Shown here: positions 3,419 through 24,242 of the stretch, piece after piece
Layout of the letters: every line of letters starts with the position of its first letter
Position numbering within the stretch: the first letter of the stretch is position 1
DNA from: a virus
Lineage: Duplodnaviria > Heunggongvirae > Uroviricota > Caudoviricetes
Length of the DNA: 30,170 bases
Strand: one strand, 5' to 3'
Virus record (IMG/VR): IMGVR_UViG_2541047794_000005
Coordinates: 1-30,170 of that record
Notes under the pieces: model-generated
What the model was told of the DNA's origin: nothing
The model's input: only the letters and a program-made list of their open reading frames with translations
Database searches by the model: none
Translations under genes and position numbers: made by a program

Positions 3419-5289
3419 GGGGCTCCAGCTAATGGCGGCACGTGCGATAGGCCGACAGCTGCTATGCCAGCATCCGTTATCGGTTCCTGATCGTTCATGG
3501 TACTAGGGGAGTTTATTGGCCCGATATTCACTGTTACAGGTAACACGGTCCGCTCTATCGGTGGACAGGTCCCTGTACTATTCGACGAACACCGTAAGGT
3601 CATAGTTATTTGTGATTCCGAGGGCGGTAAGGCAGTCGCGTGTAACCCTCTCACGGGGGATTTGCACGCAATTTTTGATCATGCACGCAATTCAGCGTTG
3701 CGTATGGCGAACGGTCTTACCGCACAACATTCCCGATACGGTTAAAATTCGGTAAGACGGTATACATGTGGAAACGTGGGTACAGTTACAATAAAAGAGC
3801 GCGGTCCTAAGGTGAGCTCAACATCGCTAATCCTTAGTCCTCCTAGTGTTCCACGGATTGGAGAGAATTTGGCAAATGTATTGACACAAACCCTTTCAAG
3901 GAAGCTTGCGTATGAAATTCCAGAGGGGGCTTAGTAGGGAAGCCTGCATGTATTGAAATTGCGCCGGCTACTGTTGAGGACGATATTGGCTGTTCCTATC
4001 TGGAAGCGGTGCCATTGATTAATCAGGGCAAGTCAGACATATACATTAAGACATGGCCAAGTAAGCCCGCGATTGCTAGCGTGATTGACGCGGGAGAAGC
4101 GATTCATAGTTAATGGGTAGTATATATGGACACGCTATGGCTGCTTGATGCAGACGGTCCCCCTGATACCGAATACCCAACTGCAACGGGCGCAGCTGCC
4201 ACATGGCATCCTGCGGTGTGCTTCAAACAGTTTTAGTCAACGCGTTAACAGATTACGGCATACCGTTAATGGGGGTGTGATCAGTGGGCGTCAGCTACCG
4301 AGCCGCATCTTATTTCCGTTGTATCAGCCGCAGAAGAGCGGCGCCAGTAGCAGATTGATGCTGGCGTGGCGCCCATGACGCTTATACTACTGAGATTACC
4401 TGCCCCTCGGTAGCCGACACCCACTTCTAACCCTCCCATTAACCCTATGCTGGTTTATATTGACGCGGGGCAGGACCGTGATAGATGGCAACGGCCTGAT
4501 CCACTGTGACATGAACTGCCTTTGGAGTTGACTAATCGGTCTCTGGGCCACCGGCTGTATCAAGGAGCCACACCTCGCCCGGATAATCCGCCCATTAACC
4601 CGATTGCTCCTCGTCCTGATCATTAACACTACCACACGCGGGCATACTAACCCCATGCTTAATGTTTTCATCATCGCAGACGGGATTTATAAATTGCTCT
4701 GCTTTAAAATCGGCAGCAGGCATTTCTCCCTGCTGTGTTGGCAGCCGATTTTCAACACATACAGGTTTCCTTACGTAGACCCCTCTAGAATGTTATACTG
4801 GATATTCCTTGGTAAGTTCGCCGGCACTACTTTTCCCCTTATCGCACCAATACCCTTGACATTAGGAGAGTTCATGGTAAGTAATTTTGAGCTCCCCATG
4901 GGAAAGCGTTTGTCCATCTGCACTATAACCCCGTCACCACATGTAGACCGTATTCTCGAGTTAAATCTGTATCTTGATTTCTCTGCGATAACACCGGTCC
5001 CCGCCCACCATTCTAAATTGCGGATATGATCAAAAATTGTGTATGAATCCTCTGTGACAAGATTCGATCCGACTTCAATCACGCCATCGGACTTACAAAT
5101 ACCAATGAAATTCGCCCGTGCAGCGGATGATGTCGGCACCGGTCAACTGTTAAACAGCGCCGGGTTTCCTGAAACAGAGCATTACGGGCCAATATACTTA
5201 CAAGACAGCCTGAACGATCCCCAATCAAAAACGAATTCTGGCATATCAGGTATCTGCCAGTCTCATGGGACGACATCACCTTGCGCTCC
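3419..5289. other. Invertible DNA segment (about 1.9 kb) bounded by inverted crossover sites; no intact ORF in any frame
   Basis: Bounded by inverted 26-bp sites with an adjacent invertase gene. The ORF track shows only short overlapping ORFs (122 aa or less) with no protein-like content. Confidence 0.6.
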
Positions 5290-6351
5290 TTCTCCCAAAC
5301 CAAGGTATGTGAGAAGACCAGCGACATCCTTTCCACTCAAATTAGTCAGCGTATTGTCCAGCGGTTGTTTACCTGCCAGCGCATTAAGCATTGTCGTGGC
5401 AAAGTTCGGGTCATTCCCCAGCGCCGCCGCCAGTTCGTTCAGTGTATCCAGTGCCGCAGGTGCAGAACCCACCATTGCCGCAATCGCCGATTTCACAAAA
5501 GCCGTGGTGGCAATCTGTGTATTGTTAACCGACTGTGCGGCAGTGGGGGCTGTTGGCGTTCCGGTGAGTTCCGGACTTGACAGCGGCGCTTTCAGTGCCA
5601 GCGCATTGTTAATGGTGGTACTGAATTTCGGATCATTGTTAATGGCTGCGGCTAATTCTTTCAGCGTGTCCAGCGTGGCTGGCGCACCATTAATCAGGGC
5701 CGTCAGTGCCGCCTGAACAAACGCGGTGGTCGCAACCTGCGTGGTGTTATTCCCTGCCGCTGGCGTTGGCGCTTTTGGTGTCCCGGTAAACGTCGGACTT
5801 TCTTTGGGTGCATACTGTGAATGCGGGTCCGGTGCGGCAAGATGTTTTGCCATCTGATCATCCACGTACACCTTCAGCTCCAGTACCTTGTCATCCACAT
5901 ACTTGCGGGTTGCCAGCACTACGGCAGGGTCGATTTTCAGGGTGATATTGTCCGTGCTGCTGGTAATCAGCACCATGCGCACGGTCTGGGTACGCCCGCT
6001 GCCTTCAGCCAGTTGCGGTTTATAGCTTTCCGGGCAGTTCCCCACGGCAATCAATGCCCCTGACTCATCAAACAGGCCCACTTCACGTATCCACCAACCG
6101 CCCTCGTTTTCAGGGATCACCTGTTCAGCAATAATCTGGCTGCTGTTCTGCGGGTCGATATAGAGCATATTCAGCGCAGCCCGGCGTTTCTCATTTACCA
6201 GTGCCGTCTGCTTTGCGTCCGGCGTCGGCAATGCTCCGCCGCCATCGCCCACCGCCATATGGGTAATTTTTAGCGGCACACCGAGCGCGGCGGCGCTGGC
6301 AAGTTTCGCCTCGCCAATATCCGTCAGCAGGGTATAAAATTTTGTGCTCAT
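5263..6351 (-). CDS. H: Tail fibre protein, constant N-terminal part only (362 aa); frame stops 8 codons after the crossover site
   Basis: N-terminus MSTKFYTLLTDIGEAKLA..., the central Ala/Thr-rich repeats and ...NELAAALGNDPNFATTMLNALAGKQP match P2 H. P2 H is much longer, so the receptor-binding C-terminal domain is absent in this orientation. Confidence 0.8.
   Translation of the reverse strand: MSTKFYTLLTDIGEAKLASAAALGVPLKITHMAVGDGGGALPTPDAKQTALVNEKRRAALNMLYIDPQNSSQIIAEQVIPENEGGWWIREVGLFDESGALIAVGNCPESYKPQLAEGSGRTQTVRMVLITSSTDNITLKIDPAVVLATRKYVDDKVLELKVYVDDQMAKHLAAPDPHSQYAPKESPTFTGTPKAPTPAAGNNTTQVATTAFVQAALTALINGAPATLDTLKELAAAINNDPKFSTTINNALALKAPLSSPELTGTPTAPTAAQSVNNTQIATTAFVKSAIAAMVGSAPAALDTLNELAAALGNDPNFATTMLNALAGKQPLDNTLTNLSGKDVAGLLTYLGLGEGAQGDVVP
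5290..5315. repeat. 26-bp invertase crossover site, right, inside the 3' end of H
   Basis: TTCTCCCAAACCAAGGTATGTGAGAA shares the left half-site exactly with 3393-3418 (inverted) and the central AA. It encodes the YLGLGEG junction of the tail fibre. Confidence 0.75.
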
Positions 6352-14790: not shown

Positions 14791-16557
14791 ATGAACACCA
14801 CACTGACACCCGCAGATCTCGATCCCCGTCGGCAGGCCATGCTGCTGTACTTTCAGGGATACCGTGTAGCCCGCATTGCTGAAATGCTGGGCGAGAAAGT
14901 TGCAACCGTTCACAGCTGGAAAAAACGCGACAAGTGGGGTGACTATGGGCCGCTGGATCAGATGCAGCTCACCACCGCCGCACGCTACTGCCAGCTCATT
15001 ATGAAGGAGCACAAAGAAGGGAAAGATTTCAAAGAGATTGACCTGCTGGCGCGCCAGTCGGAGCGCCATGCGCGGATCGGCAAGTTTAACAATGGCGGCA
15101 ACGAAGCCGACTTAAACCCTAACGTCGCCAACCGCAACAAAGGCCCGCGCCGTCAGCCGGAAAAGAACGTTTTCACCGATGAACAGATTGAGAAGCTGGA
15201 AGAAATCTTCCATTCCTCCATGTTCAACTACCAGCGCCACTGGTGGGAAGCCGGAAAAACCAACCGCATCCGCAACCTGCTGAAGTCACGCCAGATCGGC
15301 GCGACCTTCTATTTTGCCCGTGAAGCCCTGATTGACGCCCTGCTAACCGGGCGTAACCAGATTTTCCTTTCCGCCAGCAAGGCTCAGGCCCACGTCTTCA
15401 AGCAGTACATCATCGACTTCGCCAAAGAAGTGGAGGTGGAGCTGAAAGGCGATCCGATGGTGCTTCCTAACGGGGCCACGCTGTACTTCCTCGGCACCAA
15501 TGCCCGCACGGCCCAGAGTTACCACGGCAACCTGTATCTGGATGAATATTTCTGGATACCGAAATTCCAGGAGCTGCGCAAAGTGGCTTCCGGTATGGCT
15601 ATTCACAAAAAATGGCGACAAACCTATTTTTCCACGCCATCCAGCCTGACACACAGTGCTTATCCGTTCTGGTCCGGTGCGCTGTTCAACCGAGGGCGCA
15701 ACAAAGCCGATAAGGTGGACATCGACCTGTCCCACAGCAATCTGGCCCCCGGCCTGCTGTGCGCAGACGGGCAGTACCGCCAGATAGTCACTGTGGAAGA
15801 TGCGGTGCGCGGCGGCTGTAACCTGTTCGACCTCGACCAGTTGCGCATGGAGTACAGCCCGGACGAATACCAGAACCTGCTGATGTGTGAGTTCGTGGAC
15901 GATCTCGCGTCCGTGTTCCCGCTCAGCGAGCTGCAGGCGTGCATGGTGGACAGCTGGGAAGTCTGGACCGACTTTCATGCACTGGCGCTGCGCCCGTTTG
16001 GCTGGCGCGAAGTGTGGATCGGTTATGACCCGGCAAAAGGTACGCAAAACGGCGACAGCGCCGGATGCGTGGTGGTGGCTCCGCCAGCCGTGCCGGGCGG
16101 CAAGTTCCGCATTCTTGAGCGTCACCAGTGGCGCGGAATGGACTTTCGCGCCCAGGCTGACGCCATCAAAAAACTGACCGAACAGTATAACGTGACCTAT
16201 ATCGGCATCGACTCGACCGGCGTCGGTCACGGGGTTTACGAGAACGTGAAAGCGTTTTTTCCTGCCGTCCGGGAGTTTGTCTACAACCCCAACGTTAAAA
16301 ACGCCCTGGTACTCAAGGCCTACGACATTATCAGCCACCGCCGCCTGGAGTTTGACGCCGGGCACACCGACATTGCGCAGTCATTTATGGCAATCCGTCG
16401 CGCTACCACTGCCAGTGGCAACCGCCCGACCTATGAAGCCAGCCGCAGCGAAGAAGCCAGCCATGCCGATCTGGCCTGGGCAACAATGCACGCACTGTTT
16501 AACGAACCGCTGCAGGGCGAGTCCGCCAATACCAGCAATATTGTGGAGATTTTTTGA
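14791..16557 (+). CDS. P: Terminase large (ATPase) subunit gpP (588 aa)
   Basis: Size matches P2 P. Divergent from O and followed by Q with ATGA overlap. Confidence 0.9.
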   Translation: MNTTLTPADLDPRRQAMLLYFQGYRVARIAEMLGEKVATVHSWKKRDKWGDYGPLDQMQLTTAARYCQLIMKEHKEGKDFKEIDLLARQSERHARIGKFNNGGNEADLNPNVANRNKGPRRQPEKNVFTDEQIEKLEEIFHSSMFNYQRHWWEAGKTNRIRNLLKSRQIGATFYFAREALIDALLTGRNQIFLSASKAQAHVFKQYIIDFAKEVEVELKGDPMVLPNGATLYFLGTNARTAQSYHGNLYLDEYFWIPKFQELRKVASGMAIHKKWRQTYFSTPSSLTHSAYPFWSGALFNRGRNKADKVDIDLSHSNLAPGLLCADGQYRQIVTVEDAVRGGCNLFDLDQLRMEYSPDEYQNLLMCEFVDDLASVFPLSELQACMVDSWEVWTDFHALALRPFGWREVWIGYDPAKGTQNGDSAGCVVVAPPAVPGGKFRILERHQWRGMDFRAQADAIKKLTEQYNVTYIGIDSTGVGHGVYENVKAFFPAVREFVYNPNVKNALVLKAYDIISHRRLEFDAGHTDIAQSFMAIRRATTASGNRPTYEASRSEEASHADLAWATMHALFNEPLQGESANTSNIVEIF

Positions 16558-17591
16558 TGGGAAAGAGTAAGAAGAACCGCGCTGCGTCGACGAAACAGAT
16601 CCAGCATAAAAGCCAGACTTCAGCCGAAGCATTCAGCTTCGGTGATCCCGTTCCTGTTCTGGACCGCCGCGAACTGCTGGACTATGTGGAATGCGTACAG
16701 ATGGATCGCTGGTATGAGCCACCAGTGAGTTTCGACGGACTGGCGCGAACCTTCCGCGCCGCCATACATCATAGCTCACCGATTGCAGTGAAGTGCAACA
16801 TTCTGACCAGCACCTACATCCCTCACCCGCTGCTCAGCCAGCAGGCTTTTTCGCGTTTTGTACAGGACTTTCTGGTTTTTGGTAACGCCTACCTGGAGAA
16901 ACGCACGAACCGCTTCGGTGAAGTTATAGCCCTTGAGCCTGCTCTGGCAAAATACACCCGACGCGGGTTAGACCTGGATACCTACTGGTTTGTGCAATAC
17001 GGTATGACAACCCAGCCGTATCAGTTCACGAAAGGCAGCATTTTTCATCTGATGGAGCCGGACATCAACCAGGAGATCTACGGCCTGCCCGGTTATCTTT
17101 CTGCCATTCCGTCAGCCCTGCTCAACGAGTCCGCCACGCTGTTCCGCCGGAAGTATTACATTAACGGCAGCCATGCGGGCTTCATCATGTACATGACCGA
17201 CGCCGCGCAGAACCAGGAGGATGTGAACAACCTCCGCAACGCAATGAAAAGTGCCAAAGGTCCTGGTAACTTCCGTAACCTGTTTATGTACTCGCCTAAC
17301 GGCAAAAAGGATGGGCTTCAGATTATCCCGTTGTCAGAAGTGGCGGCGAAGGATGAGTTCCTGAATATCAAGAACGTGAGCCGGGACGACATGATGGCGG
17401 CGCATCGTGTGCCGCCGCAAATGATGGGTATCATTCCCAACAATACCGGCGGTTTTGGGGATGTGGAAAAGGCCAGTCGCGTCTTCACAAGAAACGAAAT
17501 AGTACCGTTACAAAAGCGATTGCTGGAGCTAAATGAATGGCTTGGTGAAGAGGTAGTCCGATTCAATCCATATGAGCTTAATACTGACTAG
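16554..17591 (+). CDS. Q: Portal protein gpQ (345 aa)
   Basis: Size and position match P2 Q. Last gene before the cos-proximal end. Confidence 0.9.
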   Translation: MMGKSKKNRAASTKQIQHKSQTSAEAFSFGDPVPVLDRRELLDYVECVQMDRWYEPPVSFDGLARTFRAAIHHSSPIAVKCNILTSTYIPHPLLSQQAFSRFVQDFLVFGNAYLEKRTNRFGEVIALEPALAKYTRRGLDLDTYWFVQYGMTTQPYQFTKGSIFHLMEPDINQEIYGLPGYLSAIPSALLNESATLFRRKYYINGSHAGFIMYMTDAAQNQEDVNNLRNAMKSAKGPGNFRNLFMYSPNGKKDGLQIIPLSEVAAKDEFLNIKNVSRDDMMAAHRVPPQMMGIIPNNTGGFGDVEKASRVFTRNEIVPLQKRLLELNEWLGEEVVRFNPYELNTD

Positions 17592-17597
17592 CAAGCA

Positions 17598-17623
17598 TAA
17601 AAAAGCCCGGTATTACCGGGCTT
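17598..17623 (-). terminator. Intrinsic terminator hairpin (8-bp GC stem, 5-nt loop), T-run on the minus strand
   Basis: AAGCCCGG-TATTA-CCGGGCTT. On the minus strand it is followed by TTTTT, so it likely terminates the 59-aa gene transcript. The A-tract on the plus side may give weak bidirectional function for Q. Confidence 0.55.
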
Positions 17624-17646
17624 CATGCAAAACGCATTTCATGGAA

Positions 17647-17826
17647 TTAAGCAGCTTTCTGCTTTTCTTTGAGCTTACCATGCAGCTCATTTCCTTCAAA
17701 TTTGCAGTCCTGCATCATATGTGGGGCCGCTTGAAGTAGTTCTTCCATCGCGACGCCCATACGGCTGAAAACATCAGATACTGAGTAATGCTTCTGAGCT
17801 TTCTTGTCACTATGCGTCATAGTCAT
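17647..17826 (-). CDS. Small hypothetical protein (59 aa, MTMTHSDKKAQKHY...), below the ORF-track size cutoff
   Basis: Hand-read ORF with a strong RBS (GAGGAAATC-ATG), a TAA stop, and a terminator about 25 bp downstream. Confidence 0.5.
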   Translation of the reverse strand: MTMTHSDKKAQKHYSVSDVFSRMGVAMEELLQAAPHMMQDCKFEGNELHGKLKEKQKAA

Positions 17827-17905
17827 GATTTCCTCTTAGAGGTCAAGCCTCATCATCCGGTAGTGGATGTTTGGCGCAGCATTGTAGCACTGCGCAAAAA
17901 TTTAT

Positions 17906-18505
17906 CTACTGTTTCTTAGAAGTAATGTAGCGTCTTACTACATCAGTTATTGTAGCAAAAGGTGCCGAAAGCAAGCTTATATCACCTTTAAAACCAAATT
18001 TTTTATAGTGGTCAGCAACTTTTTGATTCAGGGCTTCAGGGATCCGAATCTCTTGACACCCAACCGCGCTACCAAAAAGATATACCGCCCACAATGTAAC
18101 CATGAACATGTTGCCGTAAAGAGGGTGCTCTACGTCATCATCTTTCACAAAAGATTCCACAAAATGGATCTCTATGACTCCAGCGTCCTCGTCAAAGGTG
18201 CACATAGCTGCGCCAGAAGGGATATGCCTAAGTGGCCCCGCAAGGAGCTTCAAACAAAATTCAAACTTATCACTTCGATTGCCAAACCGAGAAAAACCAT
18301 AATCCCATTCTAGCTGAGCGTATCCTGTGGTCAGGATCACATAGTCTTCATCACTGATTGGACCAACAGCCAACGGCATCTTCAAAGTATCGAGGAGAAA
18401 CTGAAGGTTACTTATACTTTGACTGGCAATCTGCTCTAAGTTCAATTCTCTGTCCTTCATGCTTACGACATTAAAGGCGACTACTTTAATGTCATTTTCG
18501 GACAA
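17906..18505 (-). CDS. Hypothetical protein (199 aa), AT-rich accessory gene between cos and Q
   Basis: ORF from the track with a TTG start at 18505 (an in-frame ATG lies at 18460). No recognised family; the C-terminal HYKKFGFKG is weakly reminiscent of a GNAT motif. Confidence 0.55.
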   Translation of the reverse strand: MSENDIKVVAFNVVSMKDRELNLEQIASQSISNLQFLLDTLKMPLAVGPISDEDYVILTTGYAQLEWDYGFSRFGNRSDKFEFCLKLLAGPLRHIPSGAAMCTFDEDAGVIEIHFVESFVKDDDVEHPLYGNMFMVTLWAVYLFGSAVGCQEIRIPEALNQKVADHYKKFGFKGDISLLSAPFATITDVVRRYITSKKQ

Positions 18506-18732
18506 AGACTATAAATCTTTAATGAAACAATAGCAGAACCTTTTAAAGGTTTGCTACCTATCACTGCAACTTGTGACAGAACACTAAATCTACAGCCAAC
18601 TCCGGAACACATTCAACATTTATTTAAATCCCTTCAAACAAGATTGCACAAAAACGCGCCCTCCCTTTCAGAAGAAAACCATCAGCGGGCCTGAGGCTAA
18701 GTGAATTTTACTATTTCAACCCGCGGCGTGCG

Positions 18733-18751
18733 CTCGTATCCCCGCCACGCC
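18733..18751 (-). other. Candidate cos cohesive-end site
   Basis: Minus strand reads GGCGTGGCGGGGATACGAG. The first 13 nt match the P2/186 cohesive-end sequences as I recall them, and orientation and location fit the P2-family map. Confidence 0.45.
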
Positions 18752-18800
18752 TGCCCGCTTTATGTAGTGGTTTTCATGCACCTGCATGACATGAGCAAAA

Positions 18801-18820
18801 GCCCGCCAGTTCTGGCGGGC
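18801..18820 (-). terminator. GC-rich hairpin, putative terminator of the kinase operon beside cos
   Basis: GCCCGCCAG/CTGGCGGGC stem. On the minus strand it is followed by TTTTGC. Confidence 0.4.
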
Positions 18821-19131
18821 CTTAACAAAAACGAGCCTCAAACGTTCATGCAAACTCATGCAGCATATACATACACTACATCAACAGCATCCATTGCTAT
18901 CATTTCCAGTTCGCTTCCTACAACATCATTGCGAATAGTTATGTTACCAAGCGGCTTTTTCATACCTTTTCGGCATGACACTTCAGACGCACCAATACTG
19001 ACGTGTAATGCTTCCCCCGCAACGTCAACCCACTTAATGGTAATTTAATGTAGTTGCATGAGACGAAAAAATCTCCATAGTTGACAGACTCTATGAATGC
19101 AGCATCACTAGCAAGCATGAATAAACATGCA

Positions 19132-19836
19132 TCATCTAACAGATACTTTTGCATAAATCAAAGGCCTATCCGAAGAGCCATTTTTACGTACGACCACTCC
19201 ACTGATATCATGGTTTTTACTAAGATCTCGTAATGCGGCGCACAATGCCTTGTTGACATACCCTAGATGATTGTCGTTTTTCGTTACTAATATGGCCAGC
19301 GGATCAACAGTATTGGTATCTTCATTGCGCAATATGACTTCATCACCAATTGATATCTCGTCAAGAGCTAGACGCCCTTCCTTAATCATGTGTCTCGTTC
19401 CGGCGACCTCCATGACATAATCAAAAGGTGGCCGAATAGAAGACAAGTCTGGGACAAAATAAAAACCATCACTAGCCACTTTTCCGCCAGTACAAGCGAG
19501 CAAAACGAAGTCATTCTCTCTAAAATCAGCAGGAAGACGAAACGTCAGCAAGTAATCGGCAAAATCTTCTCTTTTCCTGGAGGGTAACCTTCTTGAAAAG
19601 GTTTGCATAACGTCTTTGCGATGAGTCGTAACTTTTATGTCAAAAGCAGGAAAACCGTGAAAGCCTTTATCCCCAGCTTTAGCAAAATCTTTGCTATCCG
19701 TAAGATAATTAAACTCGTAGCCTTCAGACTCATCTTGAAGAAGTTCACCAACGACATAGCGAGAGCCGCCGTCGGTCGGTTGCCATGTCAGTAAGAGCCT
19801 ACTTGGCATGGGAATTTTTTCTATTAAGATAGTCAT
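19132..19836 (-). CDS. HipA N-terminal-subdomain-like (HipS-like) protein with a C-terminal HIRAN-like domain (234 aa)
   Basis: The N-terminal ~150 aa (LLLTW...VGELL...YEFNY; DFVLLACTGGKVASDGFYFVP) resemble the N-subdomain of E. coli HipA as I recall it. The C-terminal ~85 aa has an HIRAN-like pattern. ATGA overlap with the kinase gene. Confidence 0.55.
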   Translation of the reverse strand: MTILIEKIPMPSRLLLTWQPTDGGSRYVVGELLQDESEGYEFNYLTDSKDFAKAGDKGFHGFPAFDIKVTTHRKDVMQTFSRRLPSRKREDFADYLLTFRLPADFRENDFVLLACTGGKVASDGFYFVPDLSSIRPPFDYVMEVAGTRHMIKEGRLALDEISIGDEVILRNEDTNTVDPLAILVTKNDNHLGYVNKALCAALRDLSKNHDISGVVVRKNGSSDRPLIYAKVSVR

Positions 19837-20744
19837 GAAGTAACACCTTTAATCAGTTCAATACGCATGTTTGTTACACGAACAATCCATGCAGCACGTT
19901 CTCTAGTCAGCGGAACAGGGCAGTTTATTTCCGTCAACTCCGCAAAAGTTGAGTCCCAAAAGTCATGGTTCAAACGAGCCAGTCTTTCAGCTACCCGCTG
20001 TTTTAATTCTTCTTTTTTATCACAAAGTTCTTTGATTAACTCTAAATGACCTAATCTCTGATACTCATCTTTGCCCAGAGTTTTACGCAAATGATGCTTT
20101 CCCCGGCTAACATGCTCCCTGAGTCTATGATCGGTCCAATCAGCAACATGTTCCGGAAAGCGTTCGTAGCATAAGCTCGTACCATTATCGAAAAATGGTG
20201 CAAGCTGACACTCGCTGGTTAAAGGGGAGAAGATAAACCCCCAGTTTTCTTGATGTCTATCTGTATTACCTATTACTGCGTCAAAGAGAGCCATATTCTC
20301 CAACCACTCAACATAGTCAACTTTAAGAGCTTTCGCGATAATCCTCAGCCCTTCAATGGAATGCTTAGCTCCTTTCTCACGATCAAAATTTGGATCTCTT
20401 CGAACAAAGTAATCACCAGCGGGAGCAAATTTCTCATAATCTTTATGATGAAACCACTCAATGAGGGCCCCGCAAAACGTATGCCCCAAATCATTAGTCT
20501 TTAACGAAGGAACTGCTTTGGGGACATTAAAACCAAGCTGCAATCCAATCCTGTAGGCAACGATCTCACACCAAAATTGATCTGGGTATTTTTTAATACT
20601 TCTCTTAAAAAGATACGGCCACGATGCTTTGATACCATGGGGGGCAACATCAGGGGAAATAACCAATGCCTTAGAGCGAGCACCAACAGGATACTGTGCG
20701 AAAACATCTAGCTCAGTCCAATAGGTTACATCTAAGCAATCCAT
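19833..20744 (-). CDS. HipA-like Ser/Thr kinase, core domain only (303 aa, HipT-like)
   Basis: Motif VIGNTDRHQENWGF and a downstream FFDNG correspond to the HipA catalytic loop (GxTDxHxxN) and Mg-binding Asp. It lacks the ~150-aa HipA N-subdomain. RBS AGGA upstream. Confidence 0.8.
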   Translation of the reverse strand: MDCLDVTYWTELDVFAQYPVGARSKALVISPDVAPHGIKASWPYLFKRSIKKYPDQFWCEIVAYRIGLQLGFNVPKAVPSLKTNDLGHTFCGALIEWFHHKDYEKFAPAGDYFVRRDPNFDREKGAKHSIEGLRIIAKALKVDYVEWLENMALFDAVIGNTDRHQENWGFIFSPLTSECQLAPFFDNGTSLCYERFPEHVADWTDHRLREHVSRGKHHLRKTLGKDEYQRLGHLELIKELCDKKEELKQRVAERLARLNHDFWDSTFAELTEINCPVPLTRERAAWIVRVTNMRIELIKGVTS

Positions 20745-20759
20745 AGCTAAGTCCTATAT

Positions 20760-21305
20760 TTATTTTTTATTTAAATTCATATAGATGTGAGAAACCTGTG
20801 CGATCTGAAATAAAACATCATCGAATGCTGTGTGCCTAATGCCAGTGAAATTTTTATCAGCATGAGAAAAAATTCCTTTGCTTTCACCAAGTGCTAAGAT
20901 GGTTCTAACGTCAAGAGTATCTCTGAATGACCATGGGCAATCCAGACCCGCCTGTAACAGGGCATGATGCATGATCGTGCAGTCAAACTCTTTCCCGTTT
21001 CCCCACACTTTTACTCGGCCAGTACGATTATGAAGAATAAATGCCACAAATTCATTCAGAACCTCTAAAAGGTCCTTAGTGCCATCAAAATTTTCGTTTT
21101 TAGCTTCAGTACTTTGATTCATCCACCACTTTACAGTAGAGGGGGCAATGGTTCTGCCTGCTTGTTCATGATCAAGCGAAATAACTTGATAGAAACCCGG
21201 ACCAATCTCGCCAGTCTCCGGCACGAAAAAAGCCGCACCAACTGAAAGGATATAAGCTGTTTTTTCAACATCCAATGTTTCTATATCTAACATTACATGA
21301 TTCAT
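20760..21305 (-). CDS. DEDDh-family 3'-5' exonuclease (DnaQ/RNase T-like), about 181 aa from ATG 21305
   Basis: Exo I motif MLDIETLD near the N-terminus and Exo III motif HTAFDDV near the C-terminus. First gene of the three-gene operon. Confidence 0.75.
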   Translation of the reverse strand: MNHVMLDIETLDVEKTAYILSVGAAFFVPETGEIGPGFYQVISLDHEQAGRTIAPSTVKWWMNQSTEAKNENFDGTKDLLEVLNEFVAFILHNRTGRVKVWGNGKEFDCTIMHHALLQAGLDCPWSFRDTLDVRTILALGESKGIFSHADKNFTGIRHTAFDDVLFQIAQVSHIYMNLNKK

Positions 21306-21801
21306 AAGAAGCAATTGAAACCATTTAGTAAAAATTGAAAGCTATCACCACATTAATGCATGGCATGTACATTTGTGGACGAAAACAAGTATTCTGATTA
21401 TAACCCAAGTGAAAAGCTCAAGTGTCGTAACTTTCACTCGGTTGTTTTCAGTTTCGAAAAACTACTGGGAAGATCCATCTAGTGGTTGTATTCATGAGCG
21501 CGAATTCTCGCCATCAGCTCATCAGTCAACTCAGAAACCCACTGCAGAGCCAGCCCCTTCTCTTCATCACTACACTCACTAGCCGCTACAAGCTTAAGAA
21601 AAAAATCAATGCGCTGGAGCTTCAAAGACTCCAAAAAATAGTCCTGCATCTTTCCTCCTATGACACCACAAGCAATACTGTATGCACAACCACTGTTTAT
21701 ATTTACAGTATATAATAATCTTACTGATGTAAAACGTTTTTTACGTTCATCAGCCTGATATGCCTGGTATTATTAAGAGCACGAATTGTTAACCCACGTG
21801 A

Positions 21802-22158
21802 TTAATACAGGTTCCGCCACTTATCATCTTCCTGCAAACGCTGGTTCCGATAGAAGATACGCAGGCCTGCTCCTGACGGAATACTGCCACCGCGAAGGAG
21901 TAAATCGACCTCTTTCTCGCTGCCATCAAATCCTCTTGACTTCAGTTCATAGACGAGCTGCTGACGCTGATACTCTGTAATTCGCTGTTTGTAGTCTTTA
22001 CGCCGTTTCGGTTTCACCAGGCGTAATCTTGCTGCCAGTTCCTGGCGCTCTTTTTTGCTCATACTATGCAGGTAATCGTGCAACTCCTTGTCATCCATAC
22101 AGGTAATGTCAGTTCTGGTATCCCCATCTGTTGATTTATCTTTCTCCTGTTGGTTCAA
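21802..22158 (-). CDS. Hypothetical basic protein (118 aa), or a displaced C-terminal part of A
   Basis: ORF begins at a TTG overlapping the A stop, and no Shine-Dalgarno precedes any candidate start. Its frame is the one A would occupy if one 26-bp repeat copy were removed. Confidence 0.4.
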
Positions 22159-24242
22159 ATTTTCAGCAAGGGGACAGTTATTGCCACGAGTCCAAGGGGA
22201 CAGTTATTGCCACGAGTCCAAGGGGCGCAAGCGCCCTGGTCGGCTGCCGCCTCCTGAACGTCAACGGCCTTACGAACCATTTTCCACTTCACTGCATGAG
22301 TACAAATCTTGCCCTCTGCAATGGGTGACCAGATGCCATAAATACGAATACCGTGATCGCCATAGGCGGTCGGCTCTTCGTTAATTTCATAAGCTGTTCT
22401 GATAAGGTGATATTTGCGGGGAACCAGTACGCCGCCCTGCTTCATAATGTAGGTGGCAAAACAACCAGCATCAGCAGCAGCCAGGATTGCATCAAGGCGC
22501 GGGTTATCCAGTACCGGCGCACCTGCTTTTTTGTCCCCCTGTTGCCTTGCCGCCTGACCAGCCAGCAATCGCAGTTCACGGTAAGCCTGACGCCCCGGAA
22601 TGCCAAAGAAGCGGAATTGCTGAACACGATGCAGAGACGCCCAAGCATTAACGTATTCAGCATTATCACGCAGGGATTTCCCCGTTTCCTTGCTGATCTC
22701 GCCAGCCAGACCACGCCCGTCCATGTTCTTACTGATGTATTTCGCGATGTAGCTTGTTGGCGTACCTTTGCGCGGGTTAATCAACTCAGACTTAAAGCGC
22801 GGCCCAGTGTTATTGCCCAGCTCCTCGCGGTCTTCACGGATGGCAAACTTACGCAGTAATGCAGTGATGGCGCGGCGGTCTTTTTTGCGCATAAAACACA
22901 ACAGGTGCCAGTGAACTGTACCGTCATGATGCGGCTCAGCCACCCGCACGCCATACCAGCGCAATCCGGCTTTGTGCATCGCCTTACGAAATGCAGCAAA
23001 CATGCCGACCAGATAATCACTACTTTGTCTTACCGTCGCATTTGTCCAGGTTGGGTTGGGCCTGCCGTTATTTAGCGTGGAATGGAAACGTGACGGACAG
23101 GTGATGGTGTAGAAAACGGCGCAGTCACCGCGCATTTCCGCGATAAGCTCCAGGCCTTTAACACAGGCCATCATCTCATTGCGGCGATGCGCAGGGTTGC
23201 TGCTGCTGGCGTTTACCACATCCTCCATGTCCAGCGTGTCGCCGTCTTCGTTCACCAGTTCATGAGAACGAAAAAACTCCAGCGACTTACGGCGCTGCTC
23301 ACGTTTATGCATCACGGCTTCATAGCTGACATAGGGAGATGCTTTTTTGCTGACCAGGCAAACAGCACGCAACTGCTCTTCCCGCCATTCGCAACGCATC
23401 TTCCATAATTTCCGGTACCACCAGTCGGCGCACAACATACGCGCCAGCGAACCCGGAATGAGTTCATAGGGCACGGGTTTACGGCGGTTTCTTTTCCGGC
23501 GGAGTTGATCAAACGCAGGCGGGATGACATCCAGACGCAGGGTTTCCGCTGCCACCTTTTCCCATGTCTTGCGGATTTCTTCTGGCTTAACGTCATCGGT
23601 GACATACAAATCGCCACAAGCTGCATCAAGGCACATGCTCATATGCGCAGCGACAAGGGTAGACAAGCGTTTCACCTGATCCTGACTCATTTCAGGCAGG
23701 ATCAGCAGGCCGTCCAGCCCTTCATGGCTTGCCATAAAGCGAAAAGAAGTGGATAGCTGACTGTCGCGTACATGCTCCAGTCGTTCCAGACATGGCTTAA
23801 TCGTCTCACGCAAATAGCGGGAATAAGCCTTTGGCCTGCCTAGGCTGCTGAAGTATTCAATACGTTGCAACAGCGGCTTGCTGATATGGGAAGGCTGGGC
23901 ATTGACGTCCGCCAGAATGACCATATCTGGATTAAAACGCTGCTGCTCATGCGCCAGCTTTGCCCGGCTAATGAGCTTATCCTGCTCCATTTCGCGTTGG
24001 ACAGGATCACGGGATTCATTAAAGAAATAACGCTCCCAGACCTGATCACTCAGTGCCTCGCGGCGCAGTTGTTCCTGCTCGTTATCGGCAGCGTACAGAG
24101 TGATCAGGTTTGAAAGCGCAGAAACCGGCGCAACTTCCGCCGGGTCCAGATAAGGGTTAATAGCCTTTTTCGGGCTGTTCCATGAGAATGCTGCGGCGGC
24201 CTCGTTAAAGCCGCTGCAGTTGTTCATATCAGCATGGCTCAT
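22155..24242 (-). CDS. A: Replication initiation protein A (rolling-circle nickase, 695 aa)
   Basis: Motifs [25 protein letters not shown] and QFRFFGIPG...AYRELRLLA match the P2-family A protein. Confidence 0.85.
22170..22221. repeat. Perfect tandem direct repeat, 2 x 26 bp (GGGGACAGTTATTGCCACGAGTCCAA), within the last 20 codons of A
   Basis: Read directly from the sequence: 22170-22195 equals 22196-22221. Confidence 0.9.

Follow-up and report, generated by a model that had tools for sequence, protein, structure and literature searches.

The DNA analyzed here (the window) is the whole 30,170-nucleotide (nt) stretch of IMG/VR virus record IMGVR_UViG_2541047794_000005, a P2-like prophage in which three minus-strand genes, numbered 1 to 3 in their direction of reading, form a cargo insert between the replication gene A and the portal gene. 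By their profile matches, genes 2 and 3 are the hipIN module, which is also the PADLOC candidate PDC-M03, and gene 1 is a predicted DEDDh 3′-5′ exonuclease. We give about an even chance to the reading that this prophage cassette is a hipIN kinase toxin-antitoxin and sensor pair with an accessory exonuclease, which most likely protects the lysogen by abortive infection. The name hipIN was introduced by Gerdes, Baerentsen & Brodersen in 2021 for the HipI kinase and its partner HipN, in which a HipS-like domain is joined to a HIRAN domain (PMC8262856). The same authors hypothesized that HIRAN senses phage DNA ends, upon which the kinase is released and abortive infection follows (PMC8262856); DNA-end-triggered abortive infection is the same idea that we apply to the locus. 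The PDC entries of PADLOC are 145 untested candidates, drawn from genes that lie inside BREX, DISARM, and type I restriction-modification (R-M) systems.

The locus shares with hipIN/PDC-M03 the gene order, a short HipA-core kinase followed by a HipS-like/HIRAN protein, with both PADLOC hidden Markov models (HMMs) matching at an E value of 4e-36. It differs in the DEDDh exonuclease gene upstream, which is absent from both the Gerdes paper and the two-gene PADLOC model, and in being cargo of a P2-like coliphage hotspot. An earlier, sequence-only reading of this DNA had regarded the combination of genes as undescribed. This holds for the exonuclease-bearing phage variant, which appears in no searchable paper and is new to that literature, but not for the hipIN core or the abortive-infection idea, both of which were already published; PADLOC likewise contains the pair, although as a candidate and not as a validated named system.

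The list of open reading frames (ORFs) confirmed the three genes at the coordinates given by the sequence-only reading. Profile HMM searches, a check which that reading had suggested, produced strong matches for all three genes, and these are therefore real genes rather than chance ORFs. Gene 2, as judged from its conserved motifs, is an intact short HipA-core kinase resembling HipI and HipT. It matched the Pfam family HipA_C (PF07804) with 40.3 bits against a cutoff of 30.5 (E value, 3.6e-10) and the PADLOC model PDC-M03A over residues 1 to 298 (E value, 4.1e-36). The Gly-rich loop, the catalytic loop (GNxDxHxxN, found in gene 2 as the previously quoted IGNTDRHQENWGF), and the Mg-binding Asp motif are all retained, and P19-x-G-A-R-x-K25, K47, G159-NTDRHQ-x-NW168, and F185-DNGT189 are invariant among 26 sequences. 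Because the Gly-rich loop begins as early as residue 19 (residues 19 to 25), the kinase lacks the HipA N-subdomain 1, as had been proposed; the Pfam search found no Couple_hipA match in gene 2. The nearest solved sequence is that of CtkA (3akj; E value, 3e-6). A Ser in the Gly-rich loop could be an autophosphorylation site, but its position is variable (A, D, or S).

Gene 3 encodes HipN, a rigid two-domain protein consisting of a HipS-like N-terminal domain and a HIRAN C-terminal domain. It matched the PADLOC model PDC-M03B (E value, 4e-36). A sequence-profile search found no match between HipN and a solved HipS, and the resemblance to HipS emerged from structure comparison only. Together, the PDC-M03B match and the structure comparison bear out the earlier assignment of a HipA-N-type domain followed by HIRAN. 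Profile alignment of HipN with HLTF paired VAG-R148-H149 with VVGLRYY, N175-x-V177-D178-x-x-A181 with NNPYDKNA, and G192-Y193-x-x-K196 with GHLKK. In these motifs, whose end-binding roles in HLTF we presume, HipN keeps the Arg, Asn, Asp, Gly, and Lys, and the two stacking tyrosines are replaced by His and Val. Since five motif positions are kept but both stacking tyrosines are replaced, binding of DNA ends by HipN is plausible but not assured. HIRAN domains bind DNA 3′ ends (PMC8262856).

Gene 1 is predicted, from its sequence and its structural model, to be a DEDDh 3′-5′ exonuclease with an intact DexA/RNase T-like active site, in agreement with the sequence-only reading. It matched the Pfam family Rv2179c-like (PF16473) with an E value of 4.8e-50 and 170 bits against a cutoff of 27, as well as PHROG 255, annotated “exonuclease” (E value, 3e-60). 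The DEDDh residues D7, E9, D108, H158, and D163 are invariant among relatives, and the motifs quoted earlier, DIET...HTAFDDV, are present. A sequence search against the PDB yielded only weak DexA matches along with spurious immunoglobulin matches, and a fold search was needed. The AlphaFold2 model (predicted local distance difference test score, 92.6) matched T4 DexA (8kel/8ken) best in Foldseek, with an E value of 3e-11 and template modeling scores of 0.75 to 0.80, followed by RNase T (E value, 4e-8). Both T4 DexA and Escherichia coli RNase T have the DEDDh chemistry in common with gene 1, although sequence identity is only 15 to 21% and gene 1 is shorter. Because these are its nearest structures, gene 1 is a predicted end-trimming enzyme, which by analogy would act on single-stranded 3′ ends and oligonucleotides rather than on intact duplex genomes.

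The domains encoded by the locus include the three of HipL, the single-gene kinase-HipS-HIRAN form described by Gerdes et al. (PMC8262856), whereas the kinase and HipN are here separate genes. HipL-type fusions in Escherichia phage 899 and Yersinia phage GMG73 are 42 to 47% identical to genes 2 and 3 and are located in the same hotspot, after the same kind of exonuclease; other fused kinase-HipN relatives measure 538 to 547 amino acids (aa). In Escherichia phage 899 (L002; PV533660.1, approximately positions 4044 to 5687), the fused kinase-HipS-HIRAN gene is annotated as 519 aa long and without the Gly-rich loop. It probably begins about 84 nt further upstream (MDINLIDVTSWRKDDEHGIFPRGARDKK...); in this longer form, it agrees with both protein P0225 and the PHROG 26212 profile of 547 aa. 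Relative to HipBST of E. coli O127:H6, the genes run in the opposite order, as had been stated: the HipS-like domain lies downstream of the kinase and is fused to HIRAN. Profile searches of the six hotspot ORFs found no helix-turn-helix family, such as a HipB-type partner would have, which also agrees with the sequence-only reading, and the exonuclease gene occupies the upstream position held by hipB in hipBST.

Two other systems resemble the locus in part. The pair known as HipAD, DS-6, or PDC-M66, a HipA-like kinase with a DUF3037 protein, is an experimentally validated phage defense in which the kinase is required as the toxin. It likewise combines a HipA-family kinase toxin with a partner other than HipB, but that partner is a DUF3037/DUF1829 protein rather than HipS-HIRAN, and it includes no nuclease. 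In Actinobacteria and Clostridia, one third of the NrnC-like deoxydinucleotidase genes adjoin HipA- and HIRAN-domain genes (PMC11706625). These clusters, like the locus, place a small DEDD 3′-5′ nuclease beside HipA and HIRAN genes, and they too are found on mobile elements near defense genes (PMC11706625). The hosts and the mobile elements differ, as does the nuclease, which is an NrnC homolog specific for DNA dinucleotides in those clusters and an Rv2179c-like/DexA-like protein here. NrnC was absent from the top 50 structural neighbors of gene 1 (DexA, RNase T, ERI/3′hExo, TREX-like, Cap18, and Orn), and a Pfam search at E values up to 1 returned only Rv2179c-like and a subthreshold RNase_T match, with no NrnC-type match.

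The distribution of hipIN was surveyed in 62 GTDB species-representative genomes with HipN relatives of 31 to 44% identity. The kinase is located directly upstream of HipN in 50/62 loci, which is mostly wherever upstream DNA was available. The family is widespread: when clustered at 50% identity, the proteins that match HipN over its full length (E values up to 1e-30) form 239 clusters. In 12/62 loci, including L007, L013, L016, L026, L030, and L059, hipIN directly follows the type I R-M gene hsdS; eight loci also have hsdM upstream, and a DUF559 gene is sometimes present. This position beside R-M genes is consistent with the guilt-by-embedding approach from which the PADLOC candidates arose. 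Other relatives adjoin Mrr, putative AbiC, and integrase genes. No recurrent nuclease was detected near hipIN; all-against-all clustering of the neighbors recovered only subunits of type I R-M systems, integrases, and genes of sporadic occurrence. In one hipIN lineage (L069, L070, and L072), whose HipN is 45 to 47% identical to that of the window, the place directly before the kinase is taken by a small DUF2513 protein instead of an exonuclease, possibly as a regulator or as a different third component; the metagenomic contigs with DUF2513 in this position carry the hipIN pair without the exonuclease.

In the mechanism we propose, the identities and intactness of the domains come from the results above, and inhibition, trigger, target, and defense phenotype are modeled on HipBST, HLTF, and the genomic context. 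As in HipBST, HipN would keep HipI inactive through its HipS-like domain. The HIRAN domain would bind, by analogy with HLTF, free 3′-OH DNA ends that arise during infection (genome ends, replication intermediates, or breakdown products), and this binding would set the kinase free. The freed kinase would then phosphorylate an essential translation factor, and growth would stop before the phage cycle is completed. The targets of HipA and HipT are aminoacyl-tRNA synthetases. Most speculatively, the exonuclease might trim 3′ single-stranded DNA ends or short oligonucleotides and in this way adjust the HIRAN signal: it could remove background ends, which would keep the kinase silent in healthy cells, or convert phage DNA into the HIRAN ligand. 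A defense role for the cassette is supported by its hotspot position, by the R-M, Mrr, and AbiC neighbors of its relatives, and by the validated HipAD pair. The A-to-portal hotspot of P2-like prophages is known to house anti-phage systems (PMC9122126).

Judged from its distribution, the exonuclease is an accessory of one clade and not the core of the system. The trio was found in four enterobacterial phage lineages, represented by E. coli, Yersinia ruckeri (L066), L068/L073, and phage 899, in which it has been inherited as a unit. The Y. ruckeri trio occupies the same slot as that of the window, and the L068/L073 trio is located beside an integrase instead of A, yielding two genomic positions overall. 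In phage 899 and Yersinia phage GMG73 the fused kinase-HipN gene still stands behind the exonuclease. Across the trios, the spacers between exonuclease and kinase are 6 to 19 nt long, and the identities of exonuclease, kinase, and HipN drop in step (53/52/64, 41/38/48, 50/53/57, and 81/81/82%). In a tree of kinase plus HipN, the exonuclease-bearing lineages group into a single clade only with two Vibrio pair-only loci among them, and their strict monophyly was recovered in 1/100 bootstraps; the tree fits a single gain of the exonuclease followed by loss and two gains alike. The exonuclease tree, in which cassette copies interleave with free copies, is undecided on the history of gain. In our reading, a phage exonuclease was captured by a hipIN cassette and long retained, which suggests, without proving it, that the proteins share a function. 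This functional link is strengthened by the parallel association of an NrnC-like nuclease in Actinobacteria and Clostridia (PMC11706625).

Several observations weigh against the favored reading. The searchable literature yielded no experiment on hipIN or PDC-M03, be it on toxicity, neutralization, DNA binding, kinase target, or phage protection. HipN has Val at the position of HLTF Tyr93, which we take to be a base-stacking residue. A consensus (sigma-70) scan called no promoter at the candidate −10 hexamer upstream of gene 1, and promoter-like sites were no more frequent than in shuffled sequence. With regard to the exonuclease, tblastn searches with five cassette exonucleases placed it beside hipIN in 0/62 GTDB loci and in 0/7 further IMG/VR prophage loci; the nuclease, which the sequence-only reading had counted as a component of the system, is conserved in one phage clade and absent from 62/62 representative loci. 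Pair-only hipIN also occurs in Aliivibrio and Vibrio prophages, and the Vibrio copies are nested inside the exonuclease-bearing clade. Because the exonuclease is missing from the surveyed representative and Vibrio loci, the hipIN pair appears to work without it. The exonuclease, for its part, belongs to a large family with independent lives. Free relatives are a core-chromosome gene in Serratia and Gibbsiella (40 to 51% identity), a member of an ERF+SSB recombination module, and a gene that precedes A in the early operon of a P2-like phage. A further relative is a standard gene in the early-left operon of very common E. coli prophages (L105 to L178; L179 of E. coli 720632, positions 4002 to 4574), with 48 to 50% identity to the Y. 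ruckeri cassette exonuclease and 42 to 44% to gene 1 of the window. It is placed between yfdR, which encodes a 5′-deoxynucleotidase, and xis, for a PrtN-type excisionase, and a YafO-family toxin gene is adjacent. Exonuclease relatives are encoded by at least 545 IMG/VR contigs, and 74 of the best 80 matches were exonuclease-only.

It is possible, if on the less likely side, that the exonuclease is independent of hipIN, an ordinary phage early gene serving recombination, nucleotide salvage, or counter-defense that is co-carried in the slot downstream of A. Its nearest relatives are the kinase-free copies just listed, cassette and free copies interleave in its tree, and hipIN pairs are complete without it. 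Coincidental carriage is harder to reconcile with an adjacency, orientation, and 6- to 19-nt spacing that hold down to ∼40% identity in four lineages, with a linkage that survives both the fusion of kinase and HipN and the move beside an integrase, and with an analogous association involving a different DEDD family in Gram-positive bacteria (PMC11706625). The cassette might instead be a plain addiction module that stabilizes the prophage by post-segregational killing and has no role against other phages, with HIRAN serving only DNA binding or autoregulation. Modules of the HipA family belong to the classical type II toxin-antitoxin systems, with DNA-binding antitoxins (PMC8262856), and the frameshifted replication gene in the window makes retention by addiction conceivable. 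We nevertheless regard such a module as quite unlikely, because HIRAN domains recognize DNA 3′ ends and not operator sequences (PMC8262856; structural match of HipN), because the genomic contexts are defense hotspots and R-M operons, and because the related kinase pair HipAD is a proven defense.

The exonuclease could also be the effector itself: the kinase and HipN would sense infection and switch the nuclease on, for example by phosphorylation, and phage DNA would be degraded from its 3′ ends. This appears very unlikely, since most hipIN loci lack a nuclease, so that the kinase must be the effector there, and since a DexA/RNase T-like enzyme of 181 aa would be expected to work on single-stranded ends and oligonucleotides, not on duplex genomes. 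Its intact DEDDh catalytic site and its likeness in fold to the DNA exonuclease T4 DexA would nonetheless suit such a role, and a nuclease arm had been proposed in the sequence-only reading.

Within the favored reading of a hipIN pair with an accessory exonuclease, a more specific scenario can be outlined, which we offer as a doubtful extension. Two unrelated DEDD families, DexA/Rv2179c-like in enterobacterial P2-type phages and NrnC-like in Actinobacteria, may have been recruited independently to HipI-HipN; HIRAN would read a pool of short 3′-OH DNA fragments that arise as a phage replicates or breaks down DNA, and the exonuclease would clear this signal and define the threshold at which the kinase fires, a role like that of ring nucleases toward cyclic oligoadenylates. 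If true, DNA breakdown products would be a bacterial immune alarm signal read by a kinase. The conserved exonuclease and the Gram-positive parallel together hint at the trigger, namely 3′-OH DNA ends or short DNA fragments. Confirmation of this trigger would provide the first mechanistic link of a HIRAN DNA-end reader to a HipA-type kinase and an instance of a nuclease tuning an immune sensor. The copy in the window is native to E. coli and is located in the well-studied P2 hotspot, and thus offers a tractable model of the widespread hipIN family, for which the natural variants (trio, pair, and fused form with exonuclease) constitute a ready-made deletion series.

The coordinates of the cassette and of the features around it are collected in Table 1.

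Table 1. Positions of the cassette genes, the flanking genes, and minor features of the hotspot in the window
Feature	Position	Strand	Remarks
Gene 1, predicted DEDDh 3′-5′ exonuclease	20760..21305	minus	181 aa from ATG at 21305
Gene 2, short HipA-family Ser/Thr kinase (HipI type), putative toxin	19833..20744	minus	303 aa
Gene 3, HipN, putative antitoxin and putative DNA-3′-end sensor	19132..19836	minus	234 aa
Candidate −10 hexamer, perfect TATAAT	21397..21402	minus	~90 nt upstream of gene 1; read from sequence
P2 A-type replication endonuclease gene (A)	22155..24242		Flank of the insert
Portal gene	16554..17591		Flank of the insert
Perfect 26-bp tandem duplication	22167..22218		Within A
56-aa ORF	21479..21649	minus	Upstream of the trio
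64-aa ORF	18960..19154	minus	Begins 23 nt before the gene 3 stop, in another frame
Noncoding segment	18726..18880		~150 bp; flanked by the trio and the 199-aa ORF
199-aa ORF	17906..18505	minus	Portal-proximal hotspot slot

The insert is AT-rich, as had been noted, with a GC content of 39 to 44% over a 4.5-kb stretch (17.5 to 22 kb) compared with 53 to 61% in the phage backbone. Of the earlier placement between A and cos, the A side stands; cos was not located, a search with a P2 cos sequence giving no match, and the other flank shown is the portal gene. Translational coupling had also been claimed for the whole operon. Genes 2 and 3 share 4 nt (ATGA), and an AGGTG precedes the start of gene 3 at a distance of 7 nt; genes 1 and 2 are closely spaced without overlap (15-nt gap; AGGA ribosome-binding site 7 nt before the ATG). 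Alternative starts of gene 1 are a TTG at 21314 (184 aa; ORF 20760 to 21314) and an ATG at 21293, the choice of the Prokaryotic Genome Annotation Pipeline (PGAP). No good −35 element accompanies the candidate TATAAT, and an Rfam search of 17.4 to 22.3 kb gave no match. A P2-family prophage of E. coli SF-173 has a 100% identical operon, annotated “3′-5′ exonuclease,” “HipA domain-containing protein,” and “HIRAN domain-containing protein.” The operon is rare, being carried by 6/5,426 complete E. coli genomes.

The replication gene A of the window contains two copies of CAAGGGGACAGTTATTGCCACGAGTC, a perfect tandem duplication that shifts the frame and splits A into ORFs of 695 and 118 aa. E. coli SF-173 has a single copy of the 26-bp unit and an intact 804-aa A gene; the prophage of the window may therefore be replication-defective. 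Between A and the trio, the 56-aa ORF has a strong ribosome-binding site (GGAGG) and matches phrog_698 (function unknown). Because other P2-like prophages, which carry different cargo, have small hypothetical genes of this kind behind A, the ORF is a backbone gene rather than a substitute for HipB.

On the portal side, the 199-aa ORF matches phrog_4350 (E value, 3e-77; function unknown) and has no Pfam, NCBIfam, or PADLOC match. At least 80% of the segment that holds it (17600 to 19130) is present in 11 complete genomes, compared with five for the trio, and the ORF is probably separate cargo. The noncoding segment between this ORF and the trio is unannotated, without an Rfam match of its own, and is matched at 86 to 92% in 1,219/5,426 complete E. 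coli genomes. In the same P2-type hotspot of strain TL-14, it has a DinI-like gene on one side and a cargo gene of the TIGR02391 family on the other, and it looks like a conserved spacer that splits the hotspot into two cargo slots. The 64-aa ORF is not annotated by PGAP, and the 630 bp downstream of gene 3 are otherwise without a convincing gene; the ORF may be a remnant of earlier cargo.

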